This document shows positions 13,238 to 56,100 of a stretch of DNA of 64,000 bases, one piece after another; within the stretch, counting starts at the first letter, position 1; each line of letters starts with the position of its first letter. This DNA comes from Botryllus schlosseri (taxonomy: Eukaryota). Position numbers and translations under genes: made by a program. The notes below the pieces were generated by a model. That model was not told the origin of the DNA. It searched no databases and saw only the letters and a program-made list of their open reading frames with translations. Location: positions 10,976,001-11,040,000 of the forward strand of contig CM119371.1 in NCBI GenBank assembly GCA_051294905.1, given 5' to 3'.

Positions 13238-13239
13238 TA

Positions 13240-30297: not shown

Positions 30298-32537
30298 TAA
30301 TGTTCCCTCTAATTTTTCACGAGTATGCGCAAACACGCCAACTCATTGCGCAGGCCCTTGGACAACAGTGGGCAACCAGGCTCCCCATAGGGTAATAAAC
30401 CAAACTTCTGGGGACCTGCGCCATCCAGACCCCCCATCGGGCTTTGCGCATTTTGCTGCTATACTCATTATCTACATTTGGTAGATGTGCCGCCTAAACG
30501 CGCGAAGCACGAAAAAGTTCTATAATTCATGATCGAATCGGTATATAGCTATCAATTTTTATGCTCTCTCTGCTCACGTAATCAGATTAACCGGTAGAGC
30601 TGATCGAATGGGGTCTGTTGGAAAAGGTAGGACCCTTAAATTATAATTAAACATCTTCGGGCGTACCCGTTGGTATAATGACTTCGTTACAGGATGCTAT
30701 TTTGTGACTTCCATGCTGTTCACATTTCACCATCCGAAAATTCGTTTGCTATTTTGGCTTCTCGACATATTTTACAGAGCAGACTTTCTCGCTCGAAAAT
30801 GAAAAATCTAATCTAATTTTATAGTTTTGTCTTCCGTTCCGTGACGTCACAATAAATCCGCGTATACATGGTGACATACTATAGGAGACAGACACACACG
30901 TACGAGAACGCACTTCAAATCAATACGTGCTATCGATGTAGGCCAGAGGTGGCCAACCTTTTTGCTATTCACGGCCGCATTTTGACTATACTGACGTAGC
31001 CAATAAATGGCCGCATTCCATGTTAAAATGTCTGTGACCATTTCCAGTGAACTCCGGACTAAGCTATTTAATCACATAGGCTTACTATACGCACCAAGGA
31101 CGCGATTGGTGACTGTGTGGTCTTGTTATGGCTCTGTACATAGTCGCGCCAAGCGCAAACAAATTTTCAGTTTCACAGATGGATTTCGTCATTAATATTA
31201 GTAGTTTTATTTAGTACTATCACACTGTTATCCTTTCTTAGTCCATGTAATCAGATTCACTGGTAAGGTTGATGCAGGGTGTTTTCAAAAATTTAGGGCA
31301 AGTTATAAATGATAATGCGTCTGGGTATGGGCCAATCGTTATTAGTAACTTTGTTGCATGCCGTCATTTCTTGACCTTCCGTCAGGATTGTTGGTATAGT
31401 CAGGAGCACACGATTGCCAGTTTGTATTTCAATATGGAGCGCATCATTTTCATCTGCTGTTCGAATCTGAACTGTGGGCACTGCTTAAAAAGGGCGCTAC
31501 TATATATTAAAATCCAAAAATGAAGTCACATTGAATCGCGCGCAGCGCGAAGAAAATTTCAAGATCAGAAAAAATATCTAAAGAAATCGAGAGTCAATTC
31601 GCAAATTCAAATTGCATGTCGACGGCCGCCAGCACATACTAATTGCATTCCGTGTCTACGGCCGCACAAATCTCCTTTTACGGCCGCAGGTTGGTTACGC
31701 CTGATGTAGGCCTACCGCGTTAGAACACTGATGTGGCGTCTTAATACCAGCAATGCACTCATTACTATCAATACCACCAGTCAGCTATAACGATATGAAT
31801 ATTCAAGTCTGACTGAAGCAAGAACAATATCAGCGTATGACCTTATCGACAGAAGATTCCCGTTCAAACAAATCGAATAAAATCAAAATTTGTGCTGCTG
31901 AGAAGATGATGTAGTTCAATGCCCTACAGTGCACAGTTGCAGCATTTCCCGACCAACGTTTGCAAGGGGATGGATTTATTTCAACGATAGTGGTGCTTGC
32001 ACTTGCATAATCTGCATATTATGCTATCTCAGAACGTGATCAGATTTGCCTGATGAAAATGATGACTTCGAAAATACACGGCATGTAATTGTACAATAGA
32101 TCTTATGCAATGTTTATGCCACGCGGAGATGACTATTCGTTAGTTTCTCACAGATTAACTTCGAGCTAGCCCACTTTGTTAAACCATGATATTTCGCCAT
32201 TCCCGGAAAAGATTGCGCTATAGAAATGATATCTAAAAGAAATATATCTTTCGTGGGGCGCACGTCATTGCAAATTATCATTTCTTCACAGAGCGCAATA
32301 TTTACCTTTACGGGCCGCACTTGTACCTCGGTTTCAGACTTCAGCGATAACGCTATTTTCCCCTGGCAATGTTTTTCACGAGTCTGCGTGCTTGCGCGGT
32401 CCCTTGGACAACGGTGCGCAACGACTAAAAAAAAGTCATCACTTCGGATTTTTTTGTGCGCAGCTTAGATTTTCTGTGCGCAGAGACCGTTTCACCACTG
32501 CGCATTTGCGCACGTGCGCAGCTTAGAGGGAACATTG
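30298..32537. mobile_element. hAT-type non-autonomous element with a nested insert
   Basis: TIRs AATGTTCCCTCTAA/TTAGAGGGAACATT; degenerate TSD GTTACAAT/GTTACCAC. Confidence 0.7.
30944..31703. mobile_element. hAT MITE nested in the 30298-32537 element
   Basis: CAGAGGTGGCCAACC...GGTTGGTTACGCCTG; 8-bp TSD ATGTAGGC at 30936-30943 and 31704-31711. Confidence 0.88.
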
Positions 32538-33475: not shown

Positions 33476-34074
33476 GTAAATACGTTTGACATAAACTATG
33501 ATTTGGCATATGGAGTTTGGAAAGGCTGCAATATGTTAGATCAACCATGAACCTCAGCTAAGACGTGTGAGCGTTAGCAATATCATTTGAGTAGCGACAA
33601 TCATTAAGTGACTCAATGCAAAAATTATGTTGAAAACCCTACGGATGCCCGAAACAAGCGATTGCGGGTGGCTGAACAAAATGCTGTCCCGGTCCGATCT
33701 GGATTGTAGGTACGAGAAAATTTCATGAAGGCTCAAGGTTAAGGAGCAATGATCGGTCACGCGTAATCTTGTCTGCTTGATCCACTCGTATTTTCACATT
33801 GTCGTGCAATTGCACCGGTATGCGTGTAATTTGACTCGTTTCTCATACGAATCGCTGTACATTGAATTACGTTCTCATTCGTTCGGACATATCACATGGT
33901 GGACATATTTCACAATATTGCATTGAAAGTATTTCGCGAACTGTAAATGGTTGGAAAGCTCGAAACACGATATAAATTAAATGTTGTAATATTAAATCCA
34001 AATTTGTTATCATCTTGTAATGTATCGCCGTCGATCAACCCTCGTCATCCTTCAACGAGTCCCAAAGCGAATAT

Positions 34075-34294
34075 TTATATTTCAACGACCTCATAGCTGA
34101 GGCCACTGGCTTGTGCAGAATTGGAAGTCACGTCGATCACTGATTCATACGCATTTCTGTCTTCGAGTTGCCTTCCAGAACATATTCCATCGCTGTCGTA
34201 CGGCGATTGCTCTCGTGATCCATCCAATTCATAAGTTTCGTATTCGTTCACTTCTGATAGAGCATTTGAACTGTTGTCTTGTTTACGTCCATTT
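34075..34294 (-). CDS. Last exon of a single-pass receptor: tyrosine-motif cytoplasmic tail
   Basis: Acceptor tttcaag|A is phase 2 and matches the TM-exon donor. Encodes RNGRKQ...NEYETYEL...SPYDSD...NAYESV...LSYEVVEI-stop. Confidence 0.8.
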
Positions 34295-35075
34295 CTTGAA
34301 AGCATTAAAATTATATGCTTTAATATGTATCCGTTTCAATTTACGTACTGAATCAGTGTATCGATATCGCACTACTGACTACACGAACGTGTTAGGATCA
34401 AGACCCTACCTTCGAATCATAAGTCATATCGAGTAATTACGCATTTTGACTCGAATCACGTCAAGTCAATCGATTTTGGAAGGTGACACGAGTCAATTCA
34501 AATCACTCGAATTTATGTAGCTCAAGGTCATCTTCGAGTCAAGTCAAGTCACAAAGTCATGTCAAATTTCGGAAGTAGACAATGAGGCATCTCAGGCCGT
34601 GTTAATTTTGACAAATGCCAAGCTTATTTTTTGGGATTTTTCAGATTTTATTTTTGACAATTTTGGCATCGCCATGAATTCATATTTATCGACTCAAATT
34701 AGCAATGTAAATTGCTTAAGTTTTGTCTTTCTTATGAACTAAAAGTCACAAAACATGCAGTATCCACACTTTGCCATCAAACAGCAATATTTTAATCCGA
34801 ATTAAAAACGATGTTTGAAACCAAACTTATCCGCTACAAAACCGAGTGCTTCTTCACTATCTATTCTCAATTCTCGATTCGCTATGCCTACAACATTTCC
34901 GGAATTCACACAGGTCACAATACGCTACATACAAAATTATAAAACGGATATATCTTTTAAACTAGAGCTGATCAACAATTTTAATTGACATTTTTTGATT
35001 CAGCGTACAAAGAAAAGAAAAGGAGTAGACTGTTTTCTTATCGGAAACAAACAATTTTTAAAAATTTGTGTAACA

Positions 35076-35607
35076 CAGTGGTTCCCAAACTTATTCTACT
35101 TCTGGCACACTGGAGGAATTATAAAACTCTCGCGGCACACTTGGGCCGAGAAAATATGCTTTTATAAAGATCAGTGTCTCTTAATACATGAACATGACAT
35201 ACCCAATAGAAAGGAAGTTGAATTGTTCATAAATCTACCCTCATTTTGTCATTAATTCTATACAGTTTCTCTCGTTTAGAGCTGTTAATTCAACTGAAAT
35301 AATAAATGCCATGTCTACCTAGCCATGAGTATACAAATTCTAACAGAACATTGATTGTTTTGCATCAATTATGGACTAGGATCTGCCAGCCGACGTCAAA
35401 AAATCATACAGTTTCTTTTGAAGAAAAAACTTGATTTAATATGATGTTATCACTAATTTCATTGTTACTTGTGCGTATATATCAGCTGTTGAAGAAGTTA
35501 AAGCGCCTGTACGTCGCATTTGCTAGTCTTCGGGCATTTTTCAAAATATTTATAGAGATCTGTGGTGGCACGCCTTTGTAGAGCAGCACACAGTTTTGTA
35601 AACACTG
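35076..35607. mobile_element. hAT (Charlie-like) MITE in an intron
   Basis: CAGTGGTTCCCAAAC...GTTTTGTAAACACTG; TSD not clear. Confidence 0.65.
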
Positions 35608-36108
35608 GTAATAAATACGGCATGGTTTAAAACCTTCACCAACAGCTATACGCGATCATAGAAGCGAATTGTCCGTGTAGTGATCGACCAGCAGTATTGC
35701 AACAATTCGCCATGACATATAAGTGCCAATATTTATTATATATTAATAAATGTTTACTCATTATGTGGGGCTGCCATTATACCAAAAATACTACATATAT
35801 TAACATTCCAAGCCTGGTCTACTAAGATGACGTCATCATGAATGGAACTCAGATACTGGACTGGACTCCGAATCGACAGATCATTACGTTGCAGCGACGC
35901 GATTCTTTCTGTATCTCGAATATGACAACGACTCCTGATGAGAGTCGGTCGAAATGCTCTGACTGGATAAAACTTGACAGTATGAACATATTGCTTCTTG
36001 TGATTATCAAAATATAGAATATGCGAAAATAAGTATAAGTAATTTTCAGAAATTGTGGAACGATTTGCAACGTTTTTGTAGATGACGTCAGCCGCAACAA
36101 AAACTCAC

Positions 36109-36211
36109 CTAATGTATATCAATATGAAAACTCCAATGAAAATCAGCAACAGGAAGCTTGCCGCAGATGCAATGATTGGAATACTAGTTTCCTGACTTTC
36201 AGAATCCATGT
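36109..36211 (-). CDS. Transmembrane exon of the receptor
   Basis: cctttcag|AC...ATTAG|gtgagt; 103 nt, phase 1 to 2. Encodes DMDSESQETSIPIIASAASFLLLIFIGVFILIYIR, a hydrophobic helix followed by basic residues after splicing. Confidence 0.85.
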
Positions 36212-37166
36212 CTGAAAGGAATGAAGAGTCTTCTTACCGCTTTAAAATTACCATCGATGCAGGTGATGTTGTTGCTTCAGTATTTTTGCTGTTTCGAATT
36301 CTTTAGTCATTTTACACCAGACCGATATTCTTCCAGATCGATATTCTTAATGGCGAATGCTTTGCTCAACTTTTCGCACGACCCACATTCGTCTTGGAAT
36401 TTCCCCGAGACACCGCCTTTCCGTAACGGGTGGCGCTAACGAGTAGGTAAACTTCAAACCATTCTAAATTTTGAACTCAATAGGCCTTTTGCAGGACTTC
36501 GATCACGTGACTAGATACGCATAGCAACCACAAATTGGTTAGCAAGCTACTTTCTCGCGCACCTGCTTCAGTGCTAAATATCGCATAGTGTACTGTTGAT
36601 TTCTGGTTGTAAACGTTTCGGAAATCTGTTGCAGAAGTCGTCAGAGATTTACCTTTGCTAGATGTCAATCCTCTACAAAGCACATAGAATGATATTGTCA
36701 TTTCGCCAATTTGACAGATATGCGTAACTTGATTATAAATTGATGCATTCTATCACATATAACCAATATGAGAAATGTTTTGTGTTGTTTCTTTCCTTAT
36801 TGTTCACGTAACACTTGTAAGATTTAGGGGCATATGGCACTACCACTGAGCTATATAAACACTGGAGTGCGCTACTCGCGATATTTGCGTGATCACTAGA
36901 AGCAGTTGCATTGTGGGTCGTAAGCTGGTCGATTTAGTACAGGAGCTTATGGAGAAGCATCCAGTGTTTAAATATATTTGATTCCTAATGAGTTTGTAGT
37001 ATTTTATACGGATGGATCTTTCAATGAATAATTATCGTAACATTCAGGATTTGTTTAAGCCCAATATCTTATTTTTATATCTGTGTTATCTGAGTAGTTC
37101 AACATGTCAAAGATATCTCGTTCTGGTGGTAGTGTTTGCTGCGCCTATATGGGTGCAGTAAAATAT

Positions 37167-37447
37167 GGTCCGTGGACATATGAGCATGCCACATTACAGC
37201 GTGCGACAACTTGGCATGCGACACATGAGCATGTGGGTTAAAGTACGGGTTAGGGGTAGATTAGGGTTGGATTTATGGTTGGGTTAGGGTTTAGGTTAGG
37301 TTAGGCTATGTAGGTTAAGTGTGGCTATGTTTCGGGTTAAGGTAAGTTTTTGGGTTTTATAGTCACATGCTGAAGTGACGCATGCTGATGTGTTCCATGG
37401 TGAACTGTCGTGTTCCATTGTGTCGCATGCTCATATATCGGGCAACC
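37167..37447. mobile_element. MITE-like element with a degenerate TTAGGG core
   Basis: Inverted ATATGAGCATGC/GCATGCTCATAT near the ends; central GGGTTAGGG-like tract at 37247-37340; flanks GTAAAATAT/GTAAATAT may be a TSD. Confidence 0.55.
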
Positions 37448-38076
37448 GTAAATATATCCACGGAGTCATATAAGAAGTAATAGCGACGGTAGTAGCGATG
37501 AAGAGTCCTTGGTACAGCGTCGGTATCCAAGAACATTTCACAGGTGAGTGAATGGCAGAATACGGTAAGCAGATCGGGAAGACTATCCTTGAATCAGTTT
37601 CTATTTTAAATTTCACCTGTCCATCACAGTCAATGACCAGATAAGCCACAGTAGTAATGAATAGGCCATGTTATATTGTCATTATACCAGAACGTTTTGT
37701 CACAGGTATATGAACGACGCTATTATCATAGCAGACTATGCCAGCAGTCCCAGCACCATATCAGTTCATCAGTATCTGTAGTAGCATGTCCACCTAGCTC
37801 ACTGTTTGTATTCTGTATGGGCAGTTCAGCCAATAATTAGTTACTTCTCAATCCTTGCTTAAAATTGTTGTGTGGGTAGGACTAGAGGTAAAGGTATAAT
37901 TGACGGCCTATGGGTTTTGTCCAGTCCTCGAACTCTTGAATCGGGTTCATAAACGTTTGACCCGCAACGATCAAGGCCATCAGTCATTGATAAATCATTG
38001 TGTTCAACAATGAACTTGATAAATATTCATGGTAGCGCAGGTCATGATGATTTCAGGACTGATAGTGGTGAATACG

Positions 38077-38590
38077 TAGGGTTACCATACGTCCTCTTTT
38101 AAGAGGATTTGTCCTCTTTTTTGACATTTTTGAAAGTGTCCTCGGAGGACGGCCTTTTGTCCCCTTTTTTGAGATTTTGTCCTCTTTTTTGAAAATTTAG
38201 GCCAGATTTAGAGCAAATTGCGAGTGATATGCCGTAAATTAGCACATAAGTGTCGCTGCGGCGGGTATTTCGGAGCGACAAACGGTTATATCAGCACTGA
38301 GTTAGAAGGTGACCTTTTTTTAGTCATCTACCTGGCAATGCGGAGAGAAAAACGGTATTTTGAGCAATGAGCGGAAAGATCACCTTTTTTTTAGTCATCC
38401 ACCAGACAATGCGGAGAGAAAAACGGTATTTTGGGCTCTGAGCGGGAAGTTGACCTTTTTTTGTTTTTTAGTCAACCGATCACAAAGTGGGAAAAATTAA
38501 CCGATTTTTGAGAATTCTTATCCGGTTTTGCAAGTCTCAAATTTCTGAAAAAGTGTCATCGTTTTAGATTTCCAAAATATGATAAGCCTA
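38077..38590 (+). mobile_element. TAGGGTTACCA-family MITE (second copy at about 32536-32913)
   Basis: TAGGGTTACCATA...TATGATAAGCCTA with GTCCTCTTTT subterminal repeats; body homologous to 32536-32913. Confidence 0.8.
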
Positions 38591-39761
38591 TAATACGGCT
38601 CTCCCATTTTTATTGTAAATGCTAGCAATAATCTGGCCAATGAAATGTCGTTAAGCGATAATTGCAAGAAAAGAATGTAGGAACACAAAAATGGAACATA
38701 ATGAGAGGAAGAGTTTGCATTCAGTCATCGTGGATGTAAGCTCTTGTCCATATCTGTTAAGGTCCGTTCAATAATTACAAAGGTAGCAACCACACACCAT
38801 AGCTTTGCCACGAATTACGCAACGAAGACAGATTTACGGAGTAATCAGATTAATGAGTTGAAATCTTCCTTACATGCCCATCCGCACTTAAAGGAACTGC
38901 TCCTCACTCACACTGCTATGACGTCATGCAAGCCTGATTTAAAAGACTTTGCGGCCGAGGTAGCGTATCACCAGTCACCACAAAATAACAAACTCCATTC
39001 GATAGCCTGTATTTCATTGTGACGTAGCCTAATAGAATCGTATTTTTGGTATTTTATGTCGTGGCTCTTTTAGAACTATGATTTTAGATATGCGTCTCGC
39101 GCATGAACCAGGTATGCTCACCTCTGCTATACAACGACGATTTAATGGTAACAAGTGCAAACGTAGATCTTGGCCATTAGCAAAACTATATAATCACGCC
39201 ACTTTATTATGAGTCGCCCGTAATTTACGAAGTACTTCTACTTTTGAATTTGCCTCCTTCTACCACTTACTCAAACGTTTATGTTTTAAACCAATTCCAC
39301 TTCCAGTTGGCCGTTTTGTTAGCAAAACCTATTACTTCTTGGACTTAATATTTTGTGAAGTGAAAAATAGCTTCGGAGTTTGTTTACATCATGTCTGTGA
39401 TGGAAATTGTCATACCAACTGGGCGGAATAGCTCCGGTACCACGGCGGCTTGGCATATTCCGATTTCCGCTTATTTGCGGTGTTATTAATAATTTTACAT
39501 TAATTACTAAATTGTAAAAGTTGTCACCTTCGAATAAATGTTAAAGGTATGCGACTCTACAACCAAACATTTCAGCGGAGAGAAATGTTTATTGATTTGT
39601 CAAACAGAAATGAAAGAAGACTCCTTCAAACTCCAAATACAAGAGAAATAATTTTACGCGATTTCGATTCAGAGACATCGACTACATGCCGTGGTTTGTC
39701 TAAGTCTCACCGTGAGAATCAGCCACGAGCGTTACATTATAAGTTATCAGTTATCACATAC

Positions 39762-39833
39762 CTTCATGTAACTCAGTTCCAGTGGATGATATCGTCCGCA
39801 TTGTCGACATTGTTCCTGTATGCTCATTAGTGT
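39762..39833 (-). CDS. Candidate Ser/Thr-rich stalk exon of the receptor
   Basis: gttacag|AC...GAAG|gtatgt; 72 nt, phase 1-1, open. Encodes DTNEHTGTMSTMRTISSTGTELHE. Confidence 0.55.
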
Positions 39834-42800
39834 CTGTAACTAATATTGATACGGTCAAAGTTGCGACTTATAAGTTCACATCATTTTCAAATCAAGTGAC
39901 TAATGACACACCTTGGATATTGGGTAGCATTAAATTCGGTATTACGACCAATAACCTCTAAATATCCACGAACTACTTTTGGAGTGTTCATTTCGGCCCT
40001 ATTTGGATATAGAAGAATTGTTGTAAATAATTGACTATTCGCCACTATATTCTGTTGTTGTTATTTAGAAGCATTATAACTGGGTGCATAAGGCCATTTC
40101 AGTAATACCAATGAGACAAGTTTATCTGAAATTTGGTACTGGTTAAGGTTTGACATGAGCAGAAGGATACCTACGGCTTCAAAGTCTACTTATATAAATA
40201 ATAAAAGAAATATTAATGCATGACTCTTCAACCGGGTGTCTCATACACCGTAGGGTGTACCATAATGTTTCAAGGGTGTACCACTCAGAGGGGGTGTACT
40301 GTGGTGCACCAGATCCTCCTTAAAGTGAACCAATAACTAGCTATGACAATAAATAGGAAAGTTCATGCTTTAGAACAGGCTGACCGGATGTGCAATGTCG
40401 TAAAATGTTCATATCAACGGGACGCAGCTTCCAAATTACATTCATTTTGTGATGTCATCAGAATATATGTCTCCTCGTTAATCAACCGTTGGTAATGGAA
40501 TTTTTGGGTCTTTTTGGAGTAAAACAGATTGGAGTTAACATGTGTCAGCTTGTGATGATCCAGTATGGAATTGGTGATTCATACACACCAAGGATTCTAT
40601 TAATTGTAGACAGGTGTGACACTGGGAACACCCTTCGCGTGGCATAGGCTACCAACTATACTGCTCTCAACGTACAGGGATTGTAGCCATGGGGATAACT
40701 GTATAATAATGCTTTTCCAGGAAACCTCCACGATGGCTCGGACATTTTAAATTGATACTTCCTGCCAGATGGTTTTAAATCGCGTAGTGTACATAATTGA
40801 AGAGGTATAGCCAGGGTGCTCGGACCTTGATGTCGAGATTGAGTACCGCTACGTTAGATGGGAACATCGGGAACATCGAGCCCTGATTAGCATTTAGCAT
40901 TTATTATACGTTGCAGTCTTGCTCATTCTTATTTCGATAAAGCCAGATGTGGCCGCTGGGCAGCCTGTAATTTTAAATACTGGGTTGTGGAGTCGGAAGT
41001 CCAGTTCCGACTCCCGAGTCTTTAAACGCACCGACTCCAACTCCTACTCCGAATCCGAATTTTCTTTACAGAACACCGATTCCGTCTCCAACTCCGACTC
41101 CAACAGCACTACAAATTCAGTTGGAAAATCATACGTCAACGTATGTTGGTTTAATGACATTCATATAACCTTTAAACATTTGCAAACATCACAATGAAAT
41201 GCAAAATTGTTTCATTGGGGCATAGCTAGAAATACTCTGTCTAATTAATATGGAAGCATTTATTTCGATATAGCCTTCCTTTTTCATATGTTATAAGTTT
41301 TTATAACATAGACAAGCCACGGATATTCTCTAATATGTATGAAACATTCACACATGATATATACCGAATCCCGTATAGATTGGAGATAGAACAATAGAAG
41401 TGTAGCTCTTGTTGTCTGCATGAGTCAGCAACTAATACATGTAAGTACATTGTACAAATGTACAAATATTCTCATCACAAACTATGCTGACGACAAGCAC
41501 AGACTCTCTCACTACTAAAAATATTTTTGATTTTGTCAAGTGGGAAGCAGCGTTTGGAGATATTTGCATAAATTTTACAAGTGACGTCGTCACTCACAAA
41601 ACCAAGCGATTTATTTGCTCTTTCACAGTATCACGGCATTATTCAAAAAATTGCTCCAAAATGTGATTGTATCAACTTTTTTGATTTTTCATGAAAGTTT
41701 TTTCAATTGTTTTGTCGATTTTTCATGCGACTAACTTTTTACTGGAAATATTTGGCACTGCATGTAAGTAAATCGCTTGATTATTTCACCGTCTTTTAAA
41801 TTTGAGGTAATTTCTGATATTCTCCATGGGTCAAGTTTTTCAGGCTATTGATTTTGTTGAAGTCGTCAACACTGAGTTTTGCTACTGTGCGTTGGATACG
41901 AATCGATTCGAGTATCTCACACCCTAATAATGTCAAATAACTTGTCCATAAATGCAACTTTTTAGTGCAATTTTTGTGAAAATGAATGCCACTTTTATCT
42001 GAAACCTTTCCTAAAATTGAGTGCAATTTCCACGGATATAACTGCAAGAAAAAAACTTGCCCAATTATTAGGCAACATTAGACACCCACTGCCCGAAATG
42101 ACTCAGTATGTGACGATAGCTAAATACAGCCTACTATCCTAAATATCACGAATTCACACTGTGCTCACTCATTTCGCGACAGTGGTGAAATGCAGCTTGT
42201 AATTGTTATGGCAGTGACCTTGGATCGACTATCCAATAATTATGCGACATCTCGGCCAAATCTAATTTCGGAAATTACTTACTTGAACACTTTTAATATA
42301 TTGATTTTGTACTTCAACTTCAAGTGGTTTGGACGTAACTTGGATCGATGATAATTTACCTGGTATGGACATTAGATGTAGAAAACACACCAGCAACTGC
42401 ATTATACAGGATCGATAATTACATTTATCGCTCCAGTACTGCTACAGCATATATTAGATAGCCGAGTACTGGTAGCTGGTATGATGCTGCAAATGCTATC
42501 ATCAAGGTCATTATGTGTCATAACGCTGCCATAACAGAAAATGTTCACTCACGGCATGATCGCTATTTAAGTTTGAATATCTTTGAAAACGAAGTTGAAG
42601 ATCGGATTGACTCGCTTTGATTCTACCGAGTTCTTGCATGGCATTCGATATCAATCAATCAAAAGAATAGATATTTTGCTTAACACACATATATTAGTGC
42701 TGTCATTCACAGATTTAAACAATATCTGCCTAATCACTATCTAAATATCTTACTTTCTGCTTCGACGATTATCTACTTCCTTATAAATCACGGTGTTGAG

Positions 42801-43247
42801 TACTCGGCTATATTGTTCTCGAAACGAATGTTTTAATTGGTTTTTCAGTGACCTCCTAAGACTAGTTTACGGACCGTCAAGAAGTTCATGGACTCCTGTT
42901 GAAATTTCTCAACCACTCAACTACCATACACAACGTATATCATCCACATAATTATTGAAGTGTGTATTTTCTACGGTAATTACTTTCAGATTATTTACGT
43001 AACTTCGCAGCGGATTTATAACTTGTTTTGATATGGCAGAAAACTTTTCAAGTAACAATCTACAGCTATATATCAAAGTATTAGCAACTGACAATTCACA
43101 ATGTACAATAAATATTCAGAAAAATTTATTGAAATGAAATATTAAAAGGCTTATCTCATATAATCAAGTAAAATCGTTGTCAATTATCTTTCCACCCATC
43201 AGTAGGCTATAAATAAATTGACGGTTATCGACGATATTTCAGGCTAC

Positions 43248-43426
43248 CTTTAGGAACACAGCTGTACGTGACGTTCCAAACTCTGTCTGGACCATTTTCG
43301 CAATCTTCGTAGAATTGATCCAGTAAATCGCAGGAGTTCTTTTTCTGACAGTCACTATCAACTTTGTCCACGAAATCCGCTGGAGAATCACAGTCTTCAT
43401 TCTTGTTTTCTTTATTCTTGCTGCAC
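43248..43426 (-). CDS. Extracellular Cys-rich exon resembling the C-terminal half of a SUEL/Gal_lectin domain
   Basis: tcttatag|G...AAAG|gtagcc; 179 nt, phase 2 to 1. Encodes CSKNKENKNEDCDSPADFVDKVDSDCQKKNSCDLLDQFYEDCENGPDRVWNVTYSCVPK, with the C..V...CxxKxSC...C...VxYxC spacing of SUEL domains. Confidence 0.7.
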
Positions 43427-43729
43427 CTATAAGAGTACATATTTAGATTTCTTGCGGTGTATATACGATTACCATACTCCGTACGTTGTTACGTGAGTAA
43501 TCTTGAAAAAAACTTTTTTTCCACATTTTAATTGATCTGTTTTTCTATTTTTACATTCAATACGTTCGATCCAGGTTTCCATGATTTAATTTCACCCAGT
43601 GATTGCTCAGCAGTAAAATCTGTACAGAACGTGAAAGTTGAACATTATTAAAAATTAAGGTTCAGTTTCGTGTGAACACTTGTATAAAAGGTTCGCTGCG
43701 AACTCGAACGTAACCACGAACATAGTGTC

Positions 43730-43870
43730 AGTTGCGGATTTTGAAAATTGAGTAGTTGTAGTTCTAGTAACGGATTTTGAAAATTGAATAGTTCTAGTTC
43801 TAGTTCTAGTTGCATATTTTAAAAATTCGGTAGTTCTAGTGCTCATTCTAGTTGCACATTTGAAAAAAAT
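43730..43870 (+). repeat. Short tandem array of about 36-45 bp units
   Basis: GTTGCGGATTTTGAAAATTGAGTAGTTGTAGTTCTA-like unit, about 4 copies. This explains the repetitive ORF 43655-44038. Confidence 0.75.
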
Positions 43871-46800
43871 AGGTTGCCGAACAACTAGAAAACACGTGTC
43901 GAAGGTTTGGGCGAATTGAGATGCCTGTGTTCTGTTGAGCGATGTTTGTGCAATGTACAGGCATTTCTCGCCCAGAGCCATCAGTGGTAACAGTGGTGTA
44001 TCCAGCGAGTGACATTTTGGGGTCGGAATTTCTCCCATTTCAAACCCGACACCCCATTCTTTTGAAATGTCGATTCAATGTCTGACATTCCCGATAAAAA
44101 AAATAACCTGTTTACTAGGAGAATGAAATCCAGCTCGGGACTGTTCTTAACTTTCAAAGACTTGGGAACCCCTACGTAACTTATAGGCAACTATTTTCCT
44201 GAGAATGACAGGCAGGAAATACTTTGGCGAGCTAAGTGTAAAGTTTGCCCTATAATCTGCGGTGTATTAGTTTAAATTAATTTATAACTTGAAAGTATGG
44301 AAATTACGTGGTCAACACAAGCTTCCGGGTGGATGTGTTACTATTAGGCAATTAGGAATTTAGAGATTACCATTAAAAGATGGTAAACAATAAACTTTAT
44401 TAACTCTTTTTAATCGCACCAACCCCTTGACACGGCCCTCTATCGCCCACCAAAATGCATGGGATTTTACAGCTTACTCACTATCCCTATCGGTGTGTTG
44501 GGTGGTGAAATCGTCATGTTATTTTGGTAATTTCGCTGGCAGGTTTTGTGAATTCGTCTTCTCGCAGCCTCAGCATATGACTGCATTCTTATGTCATAAT
44601 CTCGACTTAAACTAACCCATGTTACATCGACTTTAATTTGAATATAGATTACGCCAGGGATCGGCTACCCGTCGTACGCGTGCCAAAATTTGCACACAAG
44701 ATGGTTTTCATGCCACGCTAAATGATAGCAATTGCTTCGCTGCAATTAATTCAGAATCGGCATTTCAGAAGGACAGGGTTACGACTTCGTCCAACGGCAC
44801 GTACGCCACATCACACAACATACCACCATAACAAACATTCACCATTGGACAACTGATCGTGACTTATTGCGTGTAACCATTGACGGCATATACTAGTCTG
44901 TCATACAAATATCATGAATGTATGTGATATGTGCGTGCCGTTACATCCATGGAACCCTTGGGACTGACTTGAGGACCCCAGGGGGGCAGGAGCACTGGTT
45001 GAGAACAACCGGTATAGATGAATGTAATATACGTTGTTTTTACGGATGGGAATAGTCACTCTTTTCGCTAAGAATGTGGTTCTATCCCTTTAACTGCCCA
45101 GTGTCACATTTGCGGAATATGTGACAGTATGACGTCATCCGCGTAATACAAGGCCTGCAGTTAATTCGAGCGATACGAATAAGTTGTACCGGATACTGCA
45201 TAAGTGCTTTGAGTGATTAGGAAGGCAAATAAGAATATGATAGTCCTTCTAATTCTGCACGTTCTTCTGGGAGCTATTTACTGTGATGTGATATCACTGA
45301 TATGAACGATTTTGCTTTTTGGCATTGCGTACAATACCCACGCCAGAGACGTATCCAGGGGGCCAGAGGGGTCGTGCCCTTCAAAATTTGTTTCGTGATT
45401 TAACATAAGGTGGATAATTTTCAGGCAAATGTATTCAACTTCAAATTTTTCTTCGCCATCCTTGCGATATATAGTGACATTCGAATTTTTTAATTGCTGA
45501 ATATCCGCCTCTCGATAAATGAAAATGAAAGAATAGGCCTAAATAGAAATATGCATGATATACAGATTTGAATCTGACTGTATTAGTGTGTTCTGCCTAC
45601 CTATTAGGAACAATCTATCAACTGGAACAATGAAAATGGTGATTAAAATTGATTCAACCTATGTAATCCGTCGCTTTGACAACAATTTCGTCGGGGACTA
45701 GCAAAGTAAGATAAGCTTTGGCCAAAACTGACCCAAGCGTCAGGTACATTGACATTGATCAGAACGAATAAAACGGTTTTTACACTTGCTGCAGATATTA
45801 TACCTCAAGAACAATTTATGCAGCAACCATCACTCCAATAAGATTGATTTGGTTGGTTTTTATGACACAATAAACATATCAAATCACGATGGATCTCGTA
45901 CGTCTGCTAGACTTTTTATGTTTGGCAGCGAATTATTCTTTATATCAATTTTGTTGATGTCAATATTGTATCGATTGAGTACAAGCACACTTCGCTCAGT
46001 AGCTACGTCGCTTCTTTCTTTCCTAATGTTGTGCTATTGCGGACCACCGGAAAAAGTCACTAAACTGAATATTTCAATCAAAGTTTTCTTGCAAAGCAAA
46101 TATTTTTCAAATGAACAGGGCGCATGCTCATCTAGTGCTGAGTTTGTTTTCATGATACCAGAGCCACGCAGCTCGTGGTCTGAAACTGAAATAAAATGAA
46201 TTTCGACCACAGATGGTATAATAACGGGAAAATTTTATTTTGTAAAAAAGTTCACATTGTAGAGCTTACCAAGGTTCGTTTTCGAACGCGAACCTCGAAA
46301 TTTCCGAGGTTCGCACGCAGAACACAAACGTGAACTCAACGTTCGCACAATGTCTAGTATATATAACCATATTGCTGCGTGTCATGAATAGTGAATACGT
46401 GTAACAACTACGGCATTCTTGGTGGTATCGTACTTAATATATGCTGAATATGGCTACTTCAAACATGCTTCACTTCTCACTAAGATTAGAAATAGACTAC
46501 TAGCGTCATTGATACATTACAACATCTTCCATACCAGCGAAGCATAGCGATGTCGGAAAAATGTAGGCAATTAATTCTTAAGGCGTAGCTGCAACACCTG
46601 AACAATAACTCTAACTAATGCATCTTTTTTTTGCATCACAAGTTATAAGTTCACTCGCTTCAATCATTTACGGTTGAAATTGACCGCCACTTCCCGTGTG
46701 TCACAAACGCCTCACAGTAAATTGTTATCATGTCTTTTTGCGGCATTTGTCAGCGGCAATTACAAGCATTTCTCGTTACGCGGATCACTTCATATCTGGA

Positions 46801-48583
46801 ATACTCAAAAGGATATTTTAAAGATATTTTACAGTTTTTCGCGTTTGTGATGCGATCCATATATTGCTGGTAAGGCACAAGAAATTATTTCATAATATTG
46901 CACCTATTTTGATCTGAAGAGCTTCTTAGAGGTACAGAACTTCAATATACAATTGAATAGTATATTCATATTGAAAATAACCCGAATATTTTTGGCTGAC
47001 AGTCGTCAGGGGTAATCGTCAGCAACTAGTAGAGAATTGGAAAGAACATTGTATATCAACAATCGTATCACACACAAAGTATATTTTGAGAATAACGCGT
47101 TCTAAAACTACAACCGGTATAGCTTGCAAAAATAAGGATATCAACTTTAGCATGACATCAATAGCCACAGTCGTTGATAAGCATGAAACAGTGAACAATT
47201 TCTACCCCAATTTCATCATGTATAGCCACCAGGTAGGCACATAGTCACCTCGACTCTCGAACCATTATGATTTATCGCTTTTTAGCAGCGGAAAAGCATT
47301 GAGCAGCAGTCTTTTTTATCCTTTAAAATCAGCGATATTGTATGATTGCATTACCTGGAAACAGTCCACTGTGAAAAAATAACTCCGATTTACCGCGAAT
47401 TGTTTGAAAACACGGTAGCGTGACACTTCGCGATAACAAATCTTCTCGTCAGTAAATGGCAAATCAGCCTTCCGATAATCAAACTTTACGAGCAAAACTG
47501 TAATTTTACAGATTTCCCATCTCTGGTAGATTCAACTTACATTTCCCCGTACATTTGCGACCGAGACTGTAAATTATCCACTTACTGGGAAGGTCTGCAA
47601 GCTGTCTATGTATTTCATGATCACCCCTCTGCTTGTAAATTAATGGACGCCAGTATTATTTTTATTAGAAGGCATGAAACATCATCACAAAGATACAATA
47701 CCATTAAGCCTGAAAATGATACCAATCAATCACTCTGCTAAATGCTGTGTCCACCATTGCAAACTATAAGCTTTCCGATTGATCTCTATCCGTTCCGATT
47801 GTTTCTCTTCGTCCTTGTTCCTCAGCCAATGTAAGTATAGTACCTTGCAGTTCTACTAAAAAATAATTCACGCATTATTCGCTAACTTGTAAATGAAATT
47901 ATACAGACTAAGACAGGGGCGGACAACCCATGACCCACGGACCAAATGTGGCCCACGGAATGGTCTACTGTGGCCCGCGAGATAATCCTCGAATTTAGTT
48001 ATACCAGCAAGAAAATTTATTACCCAGGTAAAATTGCAAGGCCAACCAAAATTTGATTACCCCGACCGCGAAATTTGGAGTGTTGATGACTAAAATATCA
48101 GTTACGACGAATTGTCGTATAGCCAGGGGTCCGCCACATTTTTCGTAGATCTTCGTATATGACCATAAAGCAGAATATATTGTGGCAGATTCATTTGACT
48201 TGAAATTTTTCTTAGCTCTTCGCGCGATTTACTGCCACTCATAGCATTTGGTAGTGAAGCCCCCTCCTGAAAATTTAAATTACGCTTAATTTACAGAATT
48301 GAATCTAACCATTTGCAATTGGGAGAGAACGTGTTGTCTAACATACGATATCGCATCTACGCTCACGGTGAGATCGTCGTCGATGAAACCTTTGTACAAA
48401 ATGATAGACGCATGTTCGGCGAAATCTCCGATACTGAAATGTCTAAGCGGCAAATAATCATGTTATTGCCAAATGAGCCCAGTTGTATACAGATGCGACT
48501 CGTAATATATACAAGTAACAATATTATTCATCAAATTTATTCATTAACTGATAATAAATTCCGTGCTTCTCGAGGCCAGGACA

Positions 48584-49180
48584 TTATCATTATTATTATT
48601 ATTATTATTTGAATAGTGGCGCTTATGACCGATTAGGTCTTTTGCACCACGCACGAGATGATTAGCGTAAACAATATTTCACAGATATTTCGTATATGGC
48701 GTCATCGTGTGAATTCATGATAAGATTTGTCCGACTGTTTTTTTCTGGAAAACATGGTCGAAGACCGTTGGGATGAACGGGTGTAGGGGTGGACATGTGC
48801 AACGAGCGAGTTCAGACCTACCAGACTCATTCATTTCGAGACCAATCCCTTCTGCGTCAGGGCACATGAAGACGTAAAGTTTTGGCGAACAAACCGCCGA
48901 TGAAATGCGGTGCCAAAAACATAAGCGTCGACAAAACTTCGGTCTAAAAATGATGGTCAAACATTTCGAGATGGATTGGATATGCTCCGTTGTCGGCGCG
49001 GAATAATCCCCTTCTTGCAATATGAGTAGACAGTAGTACAGCTGCGATACGCAGAGGAATTGAATTCGCCCTAATTGGAAATCGCCTGCGTCAGACATGT
49101 TTTGTAGAGCTGTGTGGGGTAGAATTGTGGTGTGTGCGTTCTGTATGACATACATGCCCGAAAATCGTAGCATACAACTG
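48584..49180 (-). mobile_element. 5'-truncated non-LTR retrotransposon 3' end (I-clade-like)
   Basis: Minus-strand 3' stem-loop GGTGCAAAAGACCTAATCGGTCATAAGCGCC followed by an (AAT)n tail at 48584-48610; a possible C-terminal Zn-knuckle remnant lies upstream. 5' boundary is uncertain. Confidence 0.55.
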
Positions 49181-51594
49181 TAATATTAAAAATTACGAGA
49201 TGCCGCAATAACTCAAATGTTGGTGTTAGTCTAAAACCTGCTTTACCGTTATTAAACTGTAATGAATTCTTAAGTTAGATTGAGTCAAAGAGTAGAACAC
49301 ACAGTATCGGGAGTTATTTGTACTTCTCATAAACTTGCGAGACAGAAGTTGGGGCAACGTATCATCAGGTAGCGAGCTCTGAAGTGCCTACTCTCCTTGA
49401 TCGTTTTGCACCTTATGTTCCAAAGAAACGAAGCAAAAGCCTCAACACAAACATGTGGATTTTTCATCCTTTCGACAAACTGGAGCCTCGCGGGACCTTT
49501 GTGTCAGCTCTCAAATACGATTTTGCCAGCAAGCATTTTTCACTCGCGAAAAATACGCTGTATTTTGGACAGTAGTGCAGAACAGATTTCAAGACCTGGC
49601 CATCCAAGCACTAGTAGACGTTTTTGTACAAATTCCCAACACCATTGTTTGGCCGACAAGGGTTTTAGTGAAATAATTGAAAGCAAAACGAGCGAAAAAG
49701 TTGCCCTTTCAACGAGACACTTGATAGCTTAAGCTACATAGCAGCCAATTTGTTTCACATTTGAATAAAATGTTGTTAAGTAGGCCTGTCTGTTCTTTTT
49801 GTATAACAATTTTCGATTAGTTTGTGCGAATGAAATTTATTTCACAAACAAAGTGCGAACAGAGCTCAAAAAGGTTGAAAAGCACTGCTCTACTACTTCC
49901 CCGTGTTGCTCTTCGACTAAACAACAGGCCTTATAGTATGGAGGAGTGCGTCATATCATGATATTTTTTAAAACGTGCTGTTCGAGTAAACAGAGGATTA
50001 GTATCGCACTTCCATATCAATGCTATCATTTTCATCCCATGATGCGGACGAATGCTTATGCTGTCGACCATTGGATACCTCCTGGCATGCATCACTTTGA
50101 ATTAAGCTCGGCCCCTTTCGCACAGCGCAATAATTTGCACCTTTTGACAATTCATGCGAACGAAGTACTATCGTTTTCACAACTATTTACTTACTTCAGT
50201 AGATTTGAAGTCAGTCAATTCTACTTCTACTTCAAGTAGTTTTAGGTTGCTTGCGGAAGAATTGCTTCTACTCGTACTTGAGTAGATTTTCTCGTCTCTA
50301 CTCCTACTTCTACTTGAGTAGCATTCTTGACTACTTTGACCACCTCTGATTTAAACCGAATTTCATATTTTTCAATTCTCTCATCAACAGTTATAACTTT
50401 CCATGTCATCAAACAAACTGTTGAGGTTGCAAGCATCCGATCGCATTTTGTAATATGACGATAAGGGGGCGGGGAAATTTTCACTGTCATGAAGGGGGGC
50501 GTGTCTAAAAAAGGTTGGGAACCACTGTCCTAGACGATTTCGGAATCAGTGATATTCACCCGCTTCACTTATGCCAAAATTCGTTTTTAAGGACCACCCT
50601 AATATACATTATGGCTGCAAGGATTTGAAAGCAAATCAATGTTGCTAGTAGCCCAGTAACTGGATTAGCGAATAACTTTCAGAATAAATTCTGGTAAATA
50701 AACTTTACAGCTATATTAAAGTAATATTACATCCCAAATTGATTGTATGCTGTGACCTGTTCTAATGGAGATATCTCACAATCCCTTGTCCGCGTTGATG
50801 CATTATATTGACACCGTATCACATATCTATCCAAACCTTCCGAAGTAGTCGCATCGAAGTTACTAGTAACAAGTCCCGTGTCGACACTATAATCCTTATC
50901 GGCTTCTTCGCATATGTGGCACTACTGGTCATGGCGGTTCTCGAGTTCTTAGTCGTGTCTACAGCCATTACAGAAAAAAATCTGGTGCAATGACTCGTAT
51001 TGAAAAGTTAACTGATAACGTGTAGTCTTATTAAGCGGAATAATTTGTTATGATGATTGACAATAATGTCTTCTACGACGGTCGGTAGGAATTCGAGTGA
51101 TTTCTCCTCACGCGTAGTGAGAATGAATCAGGCAAATACATTTTATATTATATACCATTATATTTCTGATATTATATTATATACCATTATATTTCTGATA
51201 TTATATTATATACCATTATATTTCTTCCTCGGTTTCGAAGAAGGCACCGGTGTCATTGGCTCCACTAACAGTGCATTGCAGAACAGTGCAGCCCTATATA
51301 ATCTTGAAATAGCTGCGTTCACTATTTATTAGGAATATTAAAGCCTAAAAATGCTCAAATAAAGATAAAATTGGGGATAACATTTTTCTCCTTTTTAAAT
51401 CATATCATCTTCTATTCATTTAAGTATTGATGCATGTGTAGGTGAGAGGTGCTAGTCGACTATATTATGGCCTTGGCAACATGCGCGTAAACTCAAAACT
51501 ACTCGTCTCAATGGGACATCAAAACAAAGTTTACCAATATTTGCTTGATAAATTCAAAAGTAAAGGTATTATTGAAATGTGCAACTTATGAAAT

Positions 51595-52575
51595 GTGTTT
51601 GTTTGTTCCTGATATTCATGGTGTTTTGTAAACATTGGTCATTTTACACTAGGCCTGTATTCTATATTTTTGATTCCGTATCTACCAACTTGTAGCACAG
51701 CCCACTTCAAGGCTTTTTATACGACATCCCTTACGCGGATCCCCTCGCCAAGACGAGCACGTATACACTTCCAACATTCAAGTGGGAATTCTGGAGTCGA
51801 CCTCGGTCCGAATCGAACCCGTAACCCATTGGTGTTGCAGCCAGGACCGTAACTGCCGCACCCCAAACCCCCCAGTTAAGGGGTCCCGATATCGAAGGGG
51901 GCCCTAAATTATTTCGTGAATTAGCATAAATTATAGAGTATATTTTGCAAATTTTGGCAGTTTTTCAAAAAAATTTCGCGCCGTGCGTGACTTCAAGCTG
52001 CCAAAAATCTTGGTTATTGGGTACTCTTCCCCCAACAAAAAACACGCAACATTTATAGAAATGGGACTATCGGCGTTGGCCATTACCGTGCCACGACACA
52101 CCATGACATAAAGTATTAGGCCATGTAACATGCGACTCCAAGAAGTGTGCAAGAACCAACAGACTGGAGGTCACGAAATAACATCATGTAACGAAGTCAT
52201 ACCAACTGGCCCTCCCGCCCGAAGATGATTAATTATTATTCACGGACCCTACAGTTTCCAATACACCTCACTCAGCACTGCTGGTAAATCTGATTACGTG
52301 AGCAGAGAGGAAAAGAAACTGAAAGCAATATATATGCAATTCCCGATCTTATTGACCGATTTTATCATGAGTCATCGAAAATTTTCGCGCTTGCTGACTA
52401 AATAGTACTAATAATTTTGTGGCAAAAGCGAACAACTTGCCGGGGGGCCGGTTTATCACCCTATGGGCGGCCCAAGACCAACGTTTTTTTGAGGGGCTGG
52501 GGGGGAGGGGCTGACGAGGTGCTGCTACAGCCCTGGTTGCAGCTGTGAATCATACCACTACGCTATCTCGTCACT
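51595..52575 (-). mobile_element. tRNA-derived SINE (paralog of 28075-29146) split by a different hAT MITE
   Basis: Same head, body and AAAC tail as the copy-1 SINE; interrupted at 51842-52535. Confidence 0.8.
51842..52535. mobile_element. hAT MITE
   Basis: CAGGACCGTAAC...GCTACAGCCCTG; 8-bp TSD GTTGCAGC at 51834-51841 and 52536-52543. A related copy lies at 53448-54272. Confidence 0.85.
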
Positions 52576-53120
52576 AATGAAATGTTCGCAGTGCAGACCA
52601 AATAACAAAACGTTTGATGATTTTCCGTAACATAAAATCCAGATTAAGATTATGTTATGACTGTTACGAGGATAAGCCCGTATTCTCGTGTATCACCTCT
52701 AACTAGCTGTTTGTCGCATTGAAGCTGATAGTCGAATATTTTATGCCGGCACTTGTCCTTATCAAATTGTCTTGCAATTTGGCGTTGCTTGATACGAAAG
52801 TTGTGGAATTATTCGCCGTGTGTGCAATCGGGCCGGGTGTTGGTGATCGCTGATGTGGACGTTATATATCGTATAATTGGAATTTGCCTTTCACACATCA
52901 AACTGGATGTTTTAGAACAGTGGTTCTCAACCGGGGGTTCACGGACCCCTGGGGGGCCGTGAAGCATTTTCAGGGGGTTCGCGAAGCCTCAAAGTAGTTG
53001 ATAACCTCATTTGTATTTTTTAAATTCCGAAAATTAAGAGACGGTTTCGCTTCATAAAGTAGAACACCTGGGCTCAAATCAACAGAATGGCCGTCTGAGA
53101 TGAAGTATCCCACTGTGCAT

Positions 53121-56100
53121 CAGACATGGGGTGATTACTTCATGAATGTAATCGATTGCGATTACGATTACTTCTGAATCCCGCGATTACGATTACGATT
53201 ACAGCAAAATCAGGAAGTAGTCGATTACGATTACGATTACATGGGCAAAGTAATCACGATTACTCACGATTACATTCATCTTGCTTAGAAAACCAAGAAA
53301 ATGTATTGGAAGACAATTTAAGGATTACGATGAAAAGGCCTGAAAACAACCTTTTTATCGATGATACGTCATTTTTTTTGTTACGTCATAATATTTGCTC
53401 AACTTTATAGGAGACGATTTATCGCACCCATCGATTTGCATTCTTGGCAGGTCCGGAACTACCGCACCCCAAACTTCGTCCCCCTTCCCCCACCCAAAAA
53501 TCATTTGTCTTGGGCACCCATCGGATCATAATTTTTTTAAATAATTTTATATAATTCAATATTGATTCAGTCAATATTATTGGGAATTGCATATATACTG
53601 CTATAAATGTTTTATCCTCTCTCTGCCCATGTAATCAGATTTACCGGTAGCGCTGAGTGAGGTGTTGCCTGGGAAAATGTCGGGCCGGTAAATAATAATT
53701 GAACAATGAACATATTCGGGTGGGCCCGTTGTTATTTCATGTATTCCTGTCTGCTATGTCAGATGATATTAAAATCGCCCGAACGTATTAAACTAAAATA
53801 CGCACATGATTTCAAATTGGTATTTCTTCACTGTCAAATATTTTTTCTCTGCGGGGTGGCACTTGTCTTGCAGATTATCAGTACAGAAACATTTGGCGAC
53901 AGTCATTTATAGGCTACTATGAACAATTGAACATATTTGTATGTATTAAAAGTTTTCGGACAGCATAAGGGCAGAAGGTCGAGTTTTTTTCGCTGCTTAT
54001 CGTTCTTGCACACTTATCGGAGTTGCATATTGCATGGCCTAAAACTTCATCGTGGCGCGGTAATGGCCGACGCCGAACTGACAATTTCTGTAAATCATGC
54101 GTATTTTTCTTGGAGAAAGGTACTCAACAACGAAGAGGTTCGGCAGCATCAAATTGTTGTTGCATAAAGTTGCATATATATTCAAAAAATGCTCATGAAA
54201 TTATTTTGGGCCCCTTCGAGCTCCCCCCCCCCCCATTGGAGGGTTTTGGGGTGCGGTATAGTTACGGTCCTGGAGCGAGCTCGAAGGGGAATCAAAAGTA
54301 TTTCGTAAATCAACAGAAATTGTAGACTATTTTCGAGAAATTTAATCAACTTGAAAATTTTCGTGAAGCTTCGCAATTTAATTTCTGTAGATACCTTGGT
54401 TCTGAAATGCATACGCCTCCCCTTAAGCAAAAAAGCATGCCTAATTTATAGCAATAGGAAGTTCGATGCACGTCATTACCGCACCACGACACACCAAAAG
54501 ACAGGTGCAGTTTCAGCCAACATGTGACTCCACGAAGTGTGCTTCCAAAAAAGTCTTACGCCGAAACTTTAGGTATGTGTTAATTATCAATAGCCACGAT
54601 GGATGGACGTGATGAATAGTCATGTCCTCCCAATCTGAACCCCAAAATACAGATGCAACCCGGGCACCCTCAGAAAAATGAATGCATGGGAATTTGTGTG
54701 TGCGTCCCACTACATTTTTAGTCTGCTACACTTTTGGGTGACTACAATATCTTTTGATCATATAACAGACGTCATGCAATAATGTAATTATAACAACATA
54801 TCAGATGTTCGAATTACGAGCTCGCAGCTCGACCGGTAAATCTGGACATCGGAGGCTAGGATAGGATTGAAAATGAATGATAATATTATGTAATTATCAA
54901 TATTACTAACGAATTTCAGTCATCAACCTGAAAATTGACTACCTTATGGGAGCCATCCCGAAACCAACGTTTGGAGTGGGGGGACGAATTGCTGTTTTGG
55001 TCCTGATTCTAGCTACAACCCACACTAACATGGTGCATAAGCGGATGGCTATGGCGCAGGTCCAAATATTGAGTAAAGAATTGGAAAATAACTATTGGCG
55101 CCCGTTTCAAATAGAGTCATATGAGAAAAAGATAAAGTGAACAGAAAATGCTGCCTTCCATTTAATACAGATATGCTGCAAGCTGCCGTTAGGAATAAGA
55201 AAGGCTCGGTTATGATATATAAATGCAGCTGTTCGTTTTTAATGCTTCATTGTGGAAATCGTAATGACTCATTTTAGTAGTACAAGATTTCAAATCGATT
55301 TCCGGTGTACGTACGCATACGGATCGCCTAACAACAACGGTCCAACTGCGTTTAATTAACCATACCCATTACCTAAACATCAATTAATAAGTTACTATGT
55401 GAAATTAGGCAGAGTGGTGATTATTATTCTACTGCGAGTAGTGACGTCTCTACTGCACTGAAAACCTGATATCCAGCGCGGGCGGGTGTTTTTACAATCA
55501 CATTACAATGTACAATGTGCTGTACATTGTACATAGGATATCTGTTTACTATGTGTGGATACTTCTTACGCAATGGTGAGCAAAGCCAATAGGGGAGATG
55601 TGGTACCGATGGATCACTGGGACCAAAAATACTTTTAAAATTCTCCATGATAATTCCATGATTACACTCCGTGAATTTGTCTACAAGTACTTGCTGACAG
55701 AATCTTTCCTCACATGCAAAAAAATTCGACCTGCATGAGTTGAATGATTTACGTTATAGGGGGTGTAAAGTAAATTTGGATCGACATTTGCATTTTTCTA
55801 TATCACCTTTCAGACTAACAAACCCACCATAATTTTTGATGTGAAGCATAGGGCTTGTATCAGGGTATATAATGGCACATATTTTTTGAATCAATACCAT
55901 CCTCGAGTGGATTATTTTGAAGTCAATTACAATATTTATGGGGTGGGGGACCTATGGTACCATAGCCAAATCAAGCAAAATAGATGGACCAACTAATCAC
56001 TCAACAACAGAAACTCGCCTACATATATATAGGCTGTGAATCATAGCTACATACGGTGTTTTATCGCTATTACGAGGTATTTGAAATTCAAAATGTCGAT

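Follow-up and report, generated by a model that had tools for sequence, protein, structure and literature searches.

A candidate single-pass receptor with a SUEL-type ectodomain and a tyrosine-motif tail in Botryllus schlosseri

Loss of sugar-binding residues is common among receptor-borne rhamnose-binding lectin (RBL) domains of the SUEL family, EVA-1 included, and ligands other than carbohydrates are favoured for such domains (PMC2430599). EVA-1 binds MADD-4 and SLT-1 as protein ligands, and its function depends on the tail. In the tunicate Botryllus schlosseri, the Fester co-receptors (FcoR) carry motifs of the immunoreceptor tyrosine-based inhibitory type (ITIMs) and YxxI/L/V motifs, the FcoR genes form clustered families, and vascular cells express homologues of Src, SYK, SHP-1 and SHIP (PMC12582321). 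The signalling machinery for ITIM-bearing receptors thus exists in tunicates. Our comparisons with lectins, EVA-1 and FcoR draw on PMC2430599, PMC3269628, PMC12582321, PMC4133157 and PMC9316650. Here we describe a minus-strand gene in a 64,000-nucleotide stretch of B. schlosseri DNA (assembly GCA_051294905.1, contig CM119371.1, positions 10,976,001 to 11,040,000), called the window below and numbered from its first letter. The gene encodes a spliced single-pass protein whose SUEL-type ectodomain has a strongly altered sugar site and whose tail suggests phosphotyrosine signalling. We tentatively propose that it is a surface receptor for a protein ligand.

The spliced gene and its SUEL-type ectodomain

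A preliminary description of this locus proposed four minus-strand exons, to which we add a fifth at the 5' end. Each of the four is preceded by AG, the first three are followed by GT, and the phases are 1, 1 and 2. Joined, they give 574 nt that can be read in a single frame, of 190 aa, as far as a TAA stop; both remaining frames are closed. The full model of 227 aa comprises one eight-cysteine SUEL/RBL domain, a stalk rich in serine and threonine, one helix and a tail of 73 aa. Its features, from the 5' end, are:

44824..44838, minus strand: speculative upstream mini-exon encoding MFVMV, phase-0 donor scoring 3.3 (low confidence)
43473..43619, minus strand: added 5' exon, acceptor before 43619 scoring 2.5 (inferred, without reads)
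43580..43582, minus strand: candidate start codon ATG, with A at -3 and G at +4
43427..43472, minus strand: GT-AG intron of 46 nt, phase 2, donor score 1.0, acceptor score 3.6
43248..43426, minus strand: SUEL 3' exon, Cys3 to Cys8, whose sugar site is degenerate, with EDC in place of DPC and Arg in place of Lys
39762..39833, minus strand: stalk exon, phase 1/1
36109..36211, minus strand: transmembrane exon, helix at residues 131-154
34075..34294, minus strand: terminal tail exon including the TAA stop, acidic, with five tyrosines
34138..34155, minus strand: NAYESV, a YxxV motif
34084..34101, minus strand: LSYEVV, a match to the ITIM consensus

Since the window is otherwise a mosaic of repeats (80 self-matches), each exon was tested against chance, using splice scores from generic matrices. 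The helix exon has both the top splice scores and the top hydrophobicity among 15 exon-frame candidates that passed strict thresholds on both strands. The stalk exon is the sole open phase-1/1 exon above thresholds between its neighbours; the stalk has 34 aa, with 41% Ser and Thr. The single helix has a hydropathy of 2.83 over 19 aa within residues 131-154, and its flank charges, -6 before and +1 after, orient the N-terminus outside and the C-terminus inside. The weak points of the chain are the acceptor of the tail exon, with a score of 0.1, and the donor of the SUEL 3' exon, with a score of 1.1. These exon-by-exon tests upheld a spliced single-pass protein with a SUEL-type ectodomain, a stalk and a tyrosine-motif tail. 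The four-exon spliced gene is a real animal gene.

The family of the ectodomain was sought by sequence searches with the 3' exon. In phmmer, run over 1.84 billion proteins, it had two matches, both SUEL proteins (best E 2.8e-6), from the annelid Ridgeia piscesae (KAK2186570.1) and the fish Hypomesus transpacificus (XP_046870112.1), with 34-35% identity over the exon. SUEL was present in 24 of its 30 matches in Atlas (score 0.92), at a weak recognition value below the Atlas threshold. In Pfam, PF02140 is matched over positions 24-80 of 80 at E 0.0058, but the 17.4 bits stay below the gathering cut-off of 31.4. We also built a deep profile of 395 SUEL domains from 125 proteins, mostly from fish and biased to secreted fish lectins. 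Of the 3483 pieces into which the six frames of the window divide, the two SUEL exons rank first and third on it, and joined they align over positions 5-97 of 98 with 23.1 bits, a gain of 4.8 over the 3' exon alone (18.3). A profile scan of the whole 64-kb window found no second SUEL gene or domain. The PDB sequence search gave matches at E 0.88 and 4.2 only, the latter a rhamnose-binding lectin; a word search with the 3' exon among longer proteins gave zero candidates, and a metagenome scan confirmed none of 179 stretches. The fold predicted for the 59-aa exon alone has low confidence (predicted local distance difference test score 65), with a helix and strands in the expected order, and Foldseek with this low-confidence model returned none at E of 0.001 or below and no SUEL protein among the matches listed. 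The exon also holds one N-glycosylation sequon (NVT).

The first exon of the preliminary description begins at the third cysteine of the SUEL domain. Disulfides in RBL domains pair Cys1 with Cys3 and Cys2 with Cys8, according to a review, so the 3' exon needs two cysteines from an exon further upstream. From the ATG at 43582, the added exon encodes the N-terminal third of the domain, with Cys1, Cys2 and YG (37 aa). Among 288 upstream phase-2 donors, the pattern C-x8/9-C...YG occurs at a single one, which is the 5' exon ending at 43473. With it, the eight-cysteine SUEL/RBL pattern (predicted bonds C1-C3, C2-C8, C4-C7 and C5-C6) is complete, at model residues 10, 20, 38, 49, 63, 69, 79 and 93, all on conserved profile columns. 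By this cysteine pattern, the domain is a member of the SUEL family, and 43473..43619 very probably is the true 5' part of its coding sequence. Two other candidates for the 5' exon were rejected. The stretch 46185-46040 overlaps a dispersed repeat, and a look-alike of the form C..C..WYGR at 46614-46535 also lies in a repeat, the second copy of which has neither the two cysteines nor the acceptor.

Sugar site and cytoplasmic tail

The preliminary description took the domain to be glycan-sensing. The sugar contacts of CSL3, from chum salmon, are Glu7, Tyr27, Asn74, Asp79, Gly83 and Lys86. At this locus, Tyr and Gly are kept, as is an acid close to Asp79, which reads as Glu or as Asp according to the alignment; the Asn74 region is deleted, Glu is replaced by Lys and Lys by Arg. 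Neither replacement is found among the 395 natural domains, none of which has Lys at the Glu position directly after Cys1, or Arg where the KY motif has its conserved Lys (kept in 391). The motifs here read YGV and EDC, compared with YGR in 372, DPC in 368 and DPC..KY in 363 of the 395. In the RBL domain of latrophilin, the changes E42R and K120R each leave no detectable binding of rhamnose or galactose, and Glu is necessary for sugar binding by RBL domains (PMC2430599). Because Glu has become Lys, Arg stands for Lys, and YGR and DPC..KY are lost, the glycan-sensing claim finds no support. The Lys-to-Arg change sits in the firmly established 3' exon, so this conclusion is independent of the inferred 5' exon. 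The domain is predicted to bind neither rhamnose nor galactose, and annotation of the gene as a rhamnose-binding lectin should be avoided.

In acidity, the tail frame ranks first among 139 stop-free 73-aa pieces of the window. Its tyrosines stand at residues 173, 176, 187, 204 and 222, and all five are directly followed by Asp or Glu (p 1.6e-4 in 100,000 shuffles); the tail therefore looks like a selected phosphotyrosine platform. This suggests selected phosphotyrosine sites without saying that they are inhibitory, although an inhibitory function may apply. LSYEVV fits the ITIM consensus (S/I/V/L)xYxx(I/V/L), as reported earlier, and is the only one of the five tyrosine sites to do so. The second motif of the preliminary description, NAYESV, is present and has the form YxxV, but with Asn at -2 it is not an ITIM by consensus. 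The LSYEVV tyrosine follows that of YESV by 18 residues, and the motif lies three residues before the protein end. This spacing is too far for an immunoreceptor tyrosine-based activation motif (ITAM) and suits a tandem-SH2 phosphatase. Sites of the form Y-E or Y-D suit SH2 domains of the Src or Nck type, and YxxV fits endocytosis. We rejected an ITAM or hemITAM reading, as the tail has no YxxL and its two YxxV tyrosines are 18 residues apart. The tail exon has no Pfam match; large protein databases were not searched with it. The protein ends in V-E-I (34078-34086, minus strand), which we take to be a possible class II PDZ-binding end.

Proposed function and competing explanations

The reading we favour, which we regard as possible but short of probable, is that the gene encodes a receptor at the cell surface that binds a protein through its SUEL fold and, in a kinase-dependent manner, recruits SH2 phosphatases to its distal tyrosines. 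It would be a lineage-specific single-pass receptor derived from the SUEL/RBL fold without rhamnose or galactose binding. The disulfide-bonded domain, raised off the membrane by an O-glycosylated stalk, would bind a protein ligand, for which a self marker, a partner receptor or a microbial protein are candidates; this step is modelled on the proposal for receptor-borne RBL domains. A role in allorecognition, suggested in the preliminary description, is hypothetical. Clustering would let a Src-family kinase phosphorylate the acidic-flanked tyrosines, and the distal pair YESV/LSYEVV might then recruit a tandem-SH2 phosphatase of the SHP type, or SHIP, which would damp signalling. Endocytosis, too, may be driven by these YxxV motifs. 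Membrane entry might take the type III route, without a signal peptide and with translation starting at ATG 43582; alternatively, it might use a signal peptide lying one base out of frame in the assembly.

Several results weigh against this reading. The statistic on acidic residues after tyrosine was picked after looking. An ITIM match arises in 23% of tail shuffles with the broad consensus (11% with the strict one) and in 29 of 139 background frames, and two YxxPhi motifs arise in 18% of shuffles. The 37-aa 5' piece was not recognised by Pfam or Atlas, and a narrow profile of six domains left the 5' exon outside the top 12 of 288 and gave the joined domain fewer bits (21.7) than the 3' exon by itself (25.4). 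On the deep profile the piece ranks fifth of 288, the four above it having unusable donors (scores near -7). YGR also contains a buried Arg of structural importance (PMC2430599), which is absent here. No in-frame signal peptide was found, the first twelve 19-aa windows having hydropathies of -0.8 to -1.6, and no homologue of the same architecture was found by phmmer, word search or metagenome scan. The spliced reads by which the preliminary description could be checked also failed to appear: the bin of the helix exon had a depth of 0 in all four RNA runs, at shallow sampling, which leaves both of its junctions without read support, and exon-to-exon joints numbered zero among the 15 of 59 joints listed.

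These RNA results come from 4 of 24 runs (three bulk and one single-cell), of which 3-13% each was read and mapped to 33801-53800 at a read identity of at least 90%. The sampled individuals differ from the assembled one, and a dip in depth alone is no finding. Between 75 and 98% of the placed reads continue unlike the window and are thus repeat-derived. Depth in the bins of the SUEL and tail exons is not assignable to the exons, and nearby repeats are indicated among the rows listed. The missing reads lower confidence in the gene and do not refute it. Most RNA depth in all four runs falls on short high-copy repeats at 46915-47072 and 38077-38210, from which reads run into unrelated sequence. 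A degenerate interstitial TTAGGG-like repeat at 37240-37310 draws telomeric reads.

A recently disabled paralogue is unlikely as an explanation. The gene would once have had a signal peptide, and a one-base shift in the 5' exon would now stop translation after about 20 codons, leaving a copy that is silent or in decay; relaxed selection may then partly account for the odd sugar site. The 227-aa frame lacks the cleavable in-frame signal peptide of a type I protein, and a signal-like stretch lies out of frame. The first 37 nt of the 5' exon hold three stops in the SUEL frame, and another frame resembles the end of a signal peptide: right after the acceptor at 43619 it starts with ILLL, stays open for 20 codons and stops one base out of the SUEL register. 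A similar hydrophobic start follows 6 of 342 comparable acceptors, a post hoc statistic. A start exon may exist 1.2 kb upstream, where the MFVMV mini-exon, with five hydrophobic codons, is unique in the window and one of five such candidates in 20 kb; speculatively, and with low confidence, it could start a signal peptide. The zero reads on the helix exon and the repeat density of the region also fit a disabled copy. The case is countered by the presence of a single lesion only: no cysteine of the eight is missing, every splice dinucleotide is intact, and so are 227 codons. A one-base assembly error or one bad allele would look identical. The well-placed ATG at 43582 further speaks against it. 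It sits two codons after an in-frame stop, in a context shared by 5.2% of 1279 minus-strand ATGs, which makes it roughly as rare as the hydrophobic start (likewise post hoc). Type III membrane proteins such as TACI lack a signal peptide and yet have their domain outside, and the flank charges of -6 and +1 mean that a signal-less protein here would still have its SUEL domain outside. The gene may thus be intact but signal-less, or it may carry one frameshift, real or due to assembly error.

A non-immune co-receptor or cargo receptor resembling EVA-1 is also rather unlikely. Its RBL domain would bind a secreted protein cue or matrix, and the tyrosines would mainly be YxxPhi endocytosis signals or activating SH2-adaptor sites. 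EVA-1 is itself single-pass, has RBL domains without Glu and Lys, binds MADD-4 and SLT-1 and requires its tail. The tail described above would suit such a role, given that YESV and YEVV both fit YxxPhi, that only one of five tyrosines meets the ITIM consensus and that the Y-E and Y-D sites suit Src- or Nck-type SH2 domains. The present protein nevertheless has one RBL domain instead of two, and the two phmmer matches include no EVA-1 protein. The absence of close relatives points to recognition genes that evolve fast more than to a conserved receptor for guidance.

That the protein is an inhibitory receptor sensing rhamnose- or galactose-type glycans, as the preliminary description had it, now appears improbable. 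In its favour are the SUEL match, the acid near Asp79 and the retention of two residues of the CSL3 site, Tyr and Gly, and a different glycan could be bound, a possibility raised for latrophilin in PMC2430599. Against this stand the two replacements, the deleted Asn74 region and the absence of YGR and DPC..KY; each equivalent change in latrophilin abolishes binding (PMC2430599). In a partly accidental chain, no single transcript would unite the stalk, helix and tail exons, and the SUEL exons would be a fragment astray. This would fit the lack of junction reads and the weak tail acceptor, which has 12 other open phase-2 candidates downstream, but is scarcely credible given the fitting order, strand and phases, the stalk exon that is unique in its interval, the helix exon that is best of 15, and a tail that comes first in acidity among 139 frames and has Y-[D/E] at five of five tyrosines.

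The remainder of the window is rich in repeats. An 18.6-kb element at 4771-23380 carries TAGTG...CACTA at its ends, is flanked by the 8-bp repeat CTCGTCAG and has very long inverted arms (4771-8925 and 17037-23380) with 98.8-99.6% identity. It is foldback-like and, we presume, probably a hAT-type transposon. Inside it, a tandem array at 13239-14254 has units of about 190-200 bp that are 72-78% alike. Nested in the right arm is another element (20720-22901), which has CAGTG at its ends, is accompanied by the 8-bp duplication TTTGTCGC and contains a DNA-binding fragment of Hermes transposase at 20921-21310 on the minus strand (PF10683, E 9.4e-7). Four dispersed repeat pairs of 0.8-1.4 kb and 77-86% identity, each in the same orientation (32913-33893/62872-63883, 3384-4744/45359-46724, 27271-28215/50736-51734 and 29431-30235/57456-58271), may be old transposon copies or traces of local duplication. 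On the plus strand, 31179-31262 is an isolated hydrophobic exon-like stretch (splice scores 4.9 and 5.8, hydropathy 2.41).

Comparison with known receptor systems

The ectodomain shares with SUEL/RBL domains (PF02140), as in CSL3 and the RBL domain of mouse latrophilin-1, the order of eight cysteines, L-x-C, YG, G and the terminal Y-x-C. It differs from the lectins in the replaced Glu and Lys, the lost YGR and DPC..KY and several shorter loops. The lectins are secreted tandem repeats, whereas the present domain is membrane-bound and has a tyrosine tail. EVA-1 of C. elegans and EVA1C (C21orf63) are likewise single-pass with an RBL ectodomain that lacks the sugar residues. The tail of EVA-1 is short, its RBL domains number two, and the word tyrosine is absent from the EVA-1 paper searched; the locus described here has one domain in the window and five Y-[D/E] sites. 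FcoR of B. schlosseri shares the single pass and the long tail, with tails of more than 60 aa that carry ITIM and YxxI/L/V 'core-1' motifs. FcoR proteins have three immunoglobulin (Ig)-like domains plus Sushi and a signal sequence, and the main text of PMC12582321 does not mention SUEL. Unlike FcoR, the present tail has no core-2 pair or hemITAM, and the ectodomain is not of the Ig-Sushi-Ig-Ig type.

Vertebrate immunity provides a further comparison. CD33-related Siglecs and the receptors Ly49 and NKR-P1 join a lectin-fold ectodomain to an ITIM, and natural killer (NK) cell receptors have turned the lectin fold into a protein binder. In CD33, the ITIM and an ITIM-like motif are about 18 residues apart; at the locus described here, the ITIM-like motif precedes the ITIM. 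The folds of Siglecs, Ly49 and NKR-P1 are Ig V-set or C-type lectin, without homology to SUEL. We found no description of a single sugar-blind SUEL domain with an ITIM-type tail in the open-access literature. The sole open-access paper found with both SUEL and ITIM uses ITIM with reference to a fish Siglec. All modules are known, and their combination in one protein appears to be new.

If expressed and inhibitory, the gene would couple a new ectodomain to conserved tyrosine signalling in invertebrate chordates. It would also be a small example, open to testing, of how a lectin fold changes over to protein ligands. A broken copy would still mark birth-and-death turnover in a receptor cluster. 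More speculatively, and we consider this unlikely, the gene might belong to a family of tunicate receptors for self and non-self, clustered, diverging fast and possibly of type III, in which the SUEL fold was turned from sugar to protein recognition and wired to ITIMs. Such a family would add a scaffold besides the Ig/Sushi type of FcoR, and it would be an independent parallel to the reuse of the C-type lectin fold by NK receptors.

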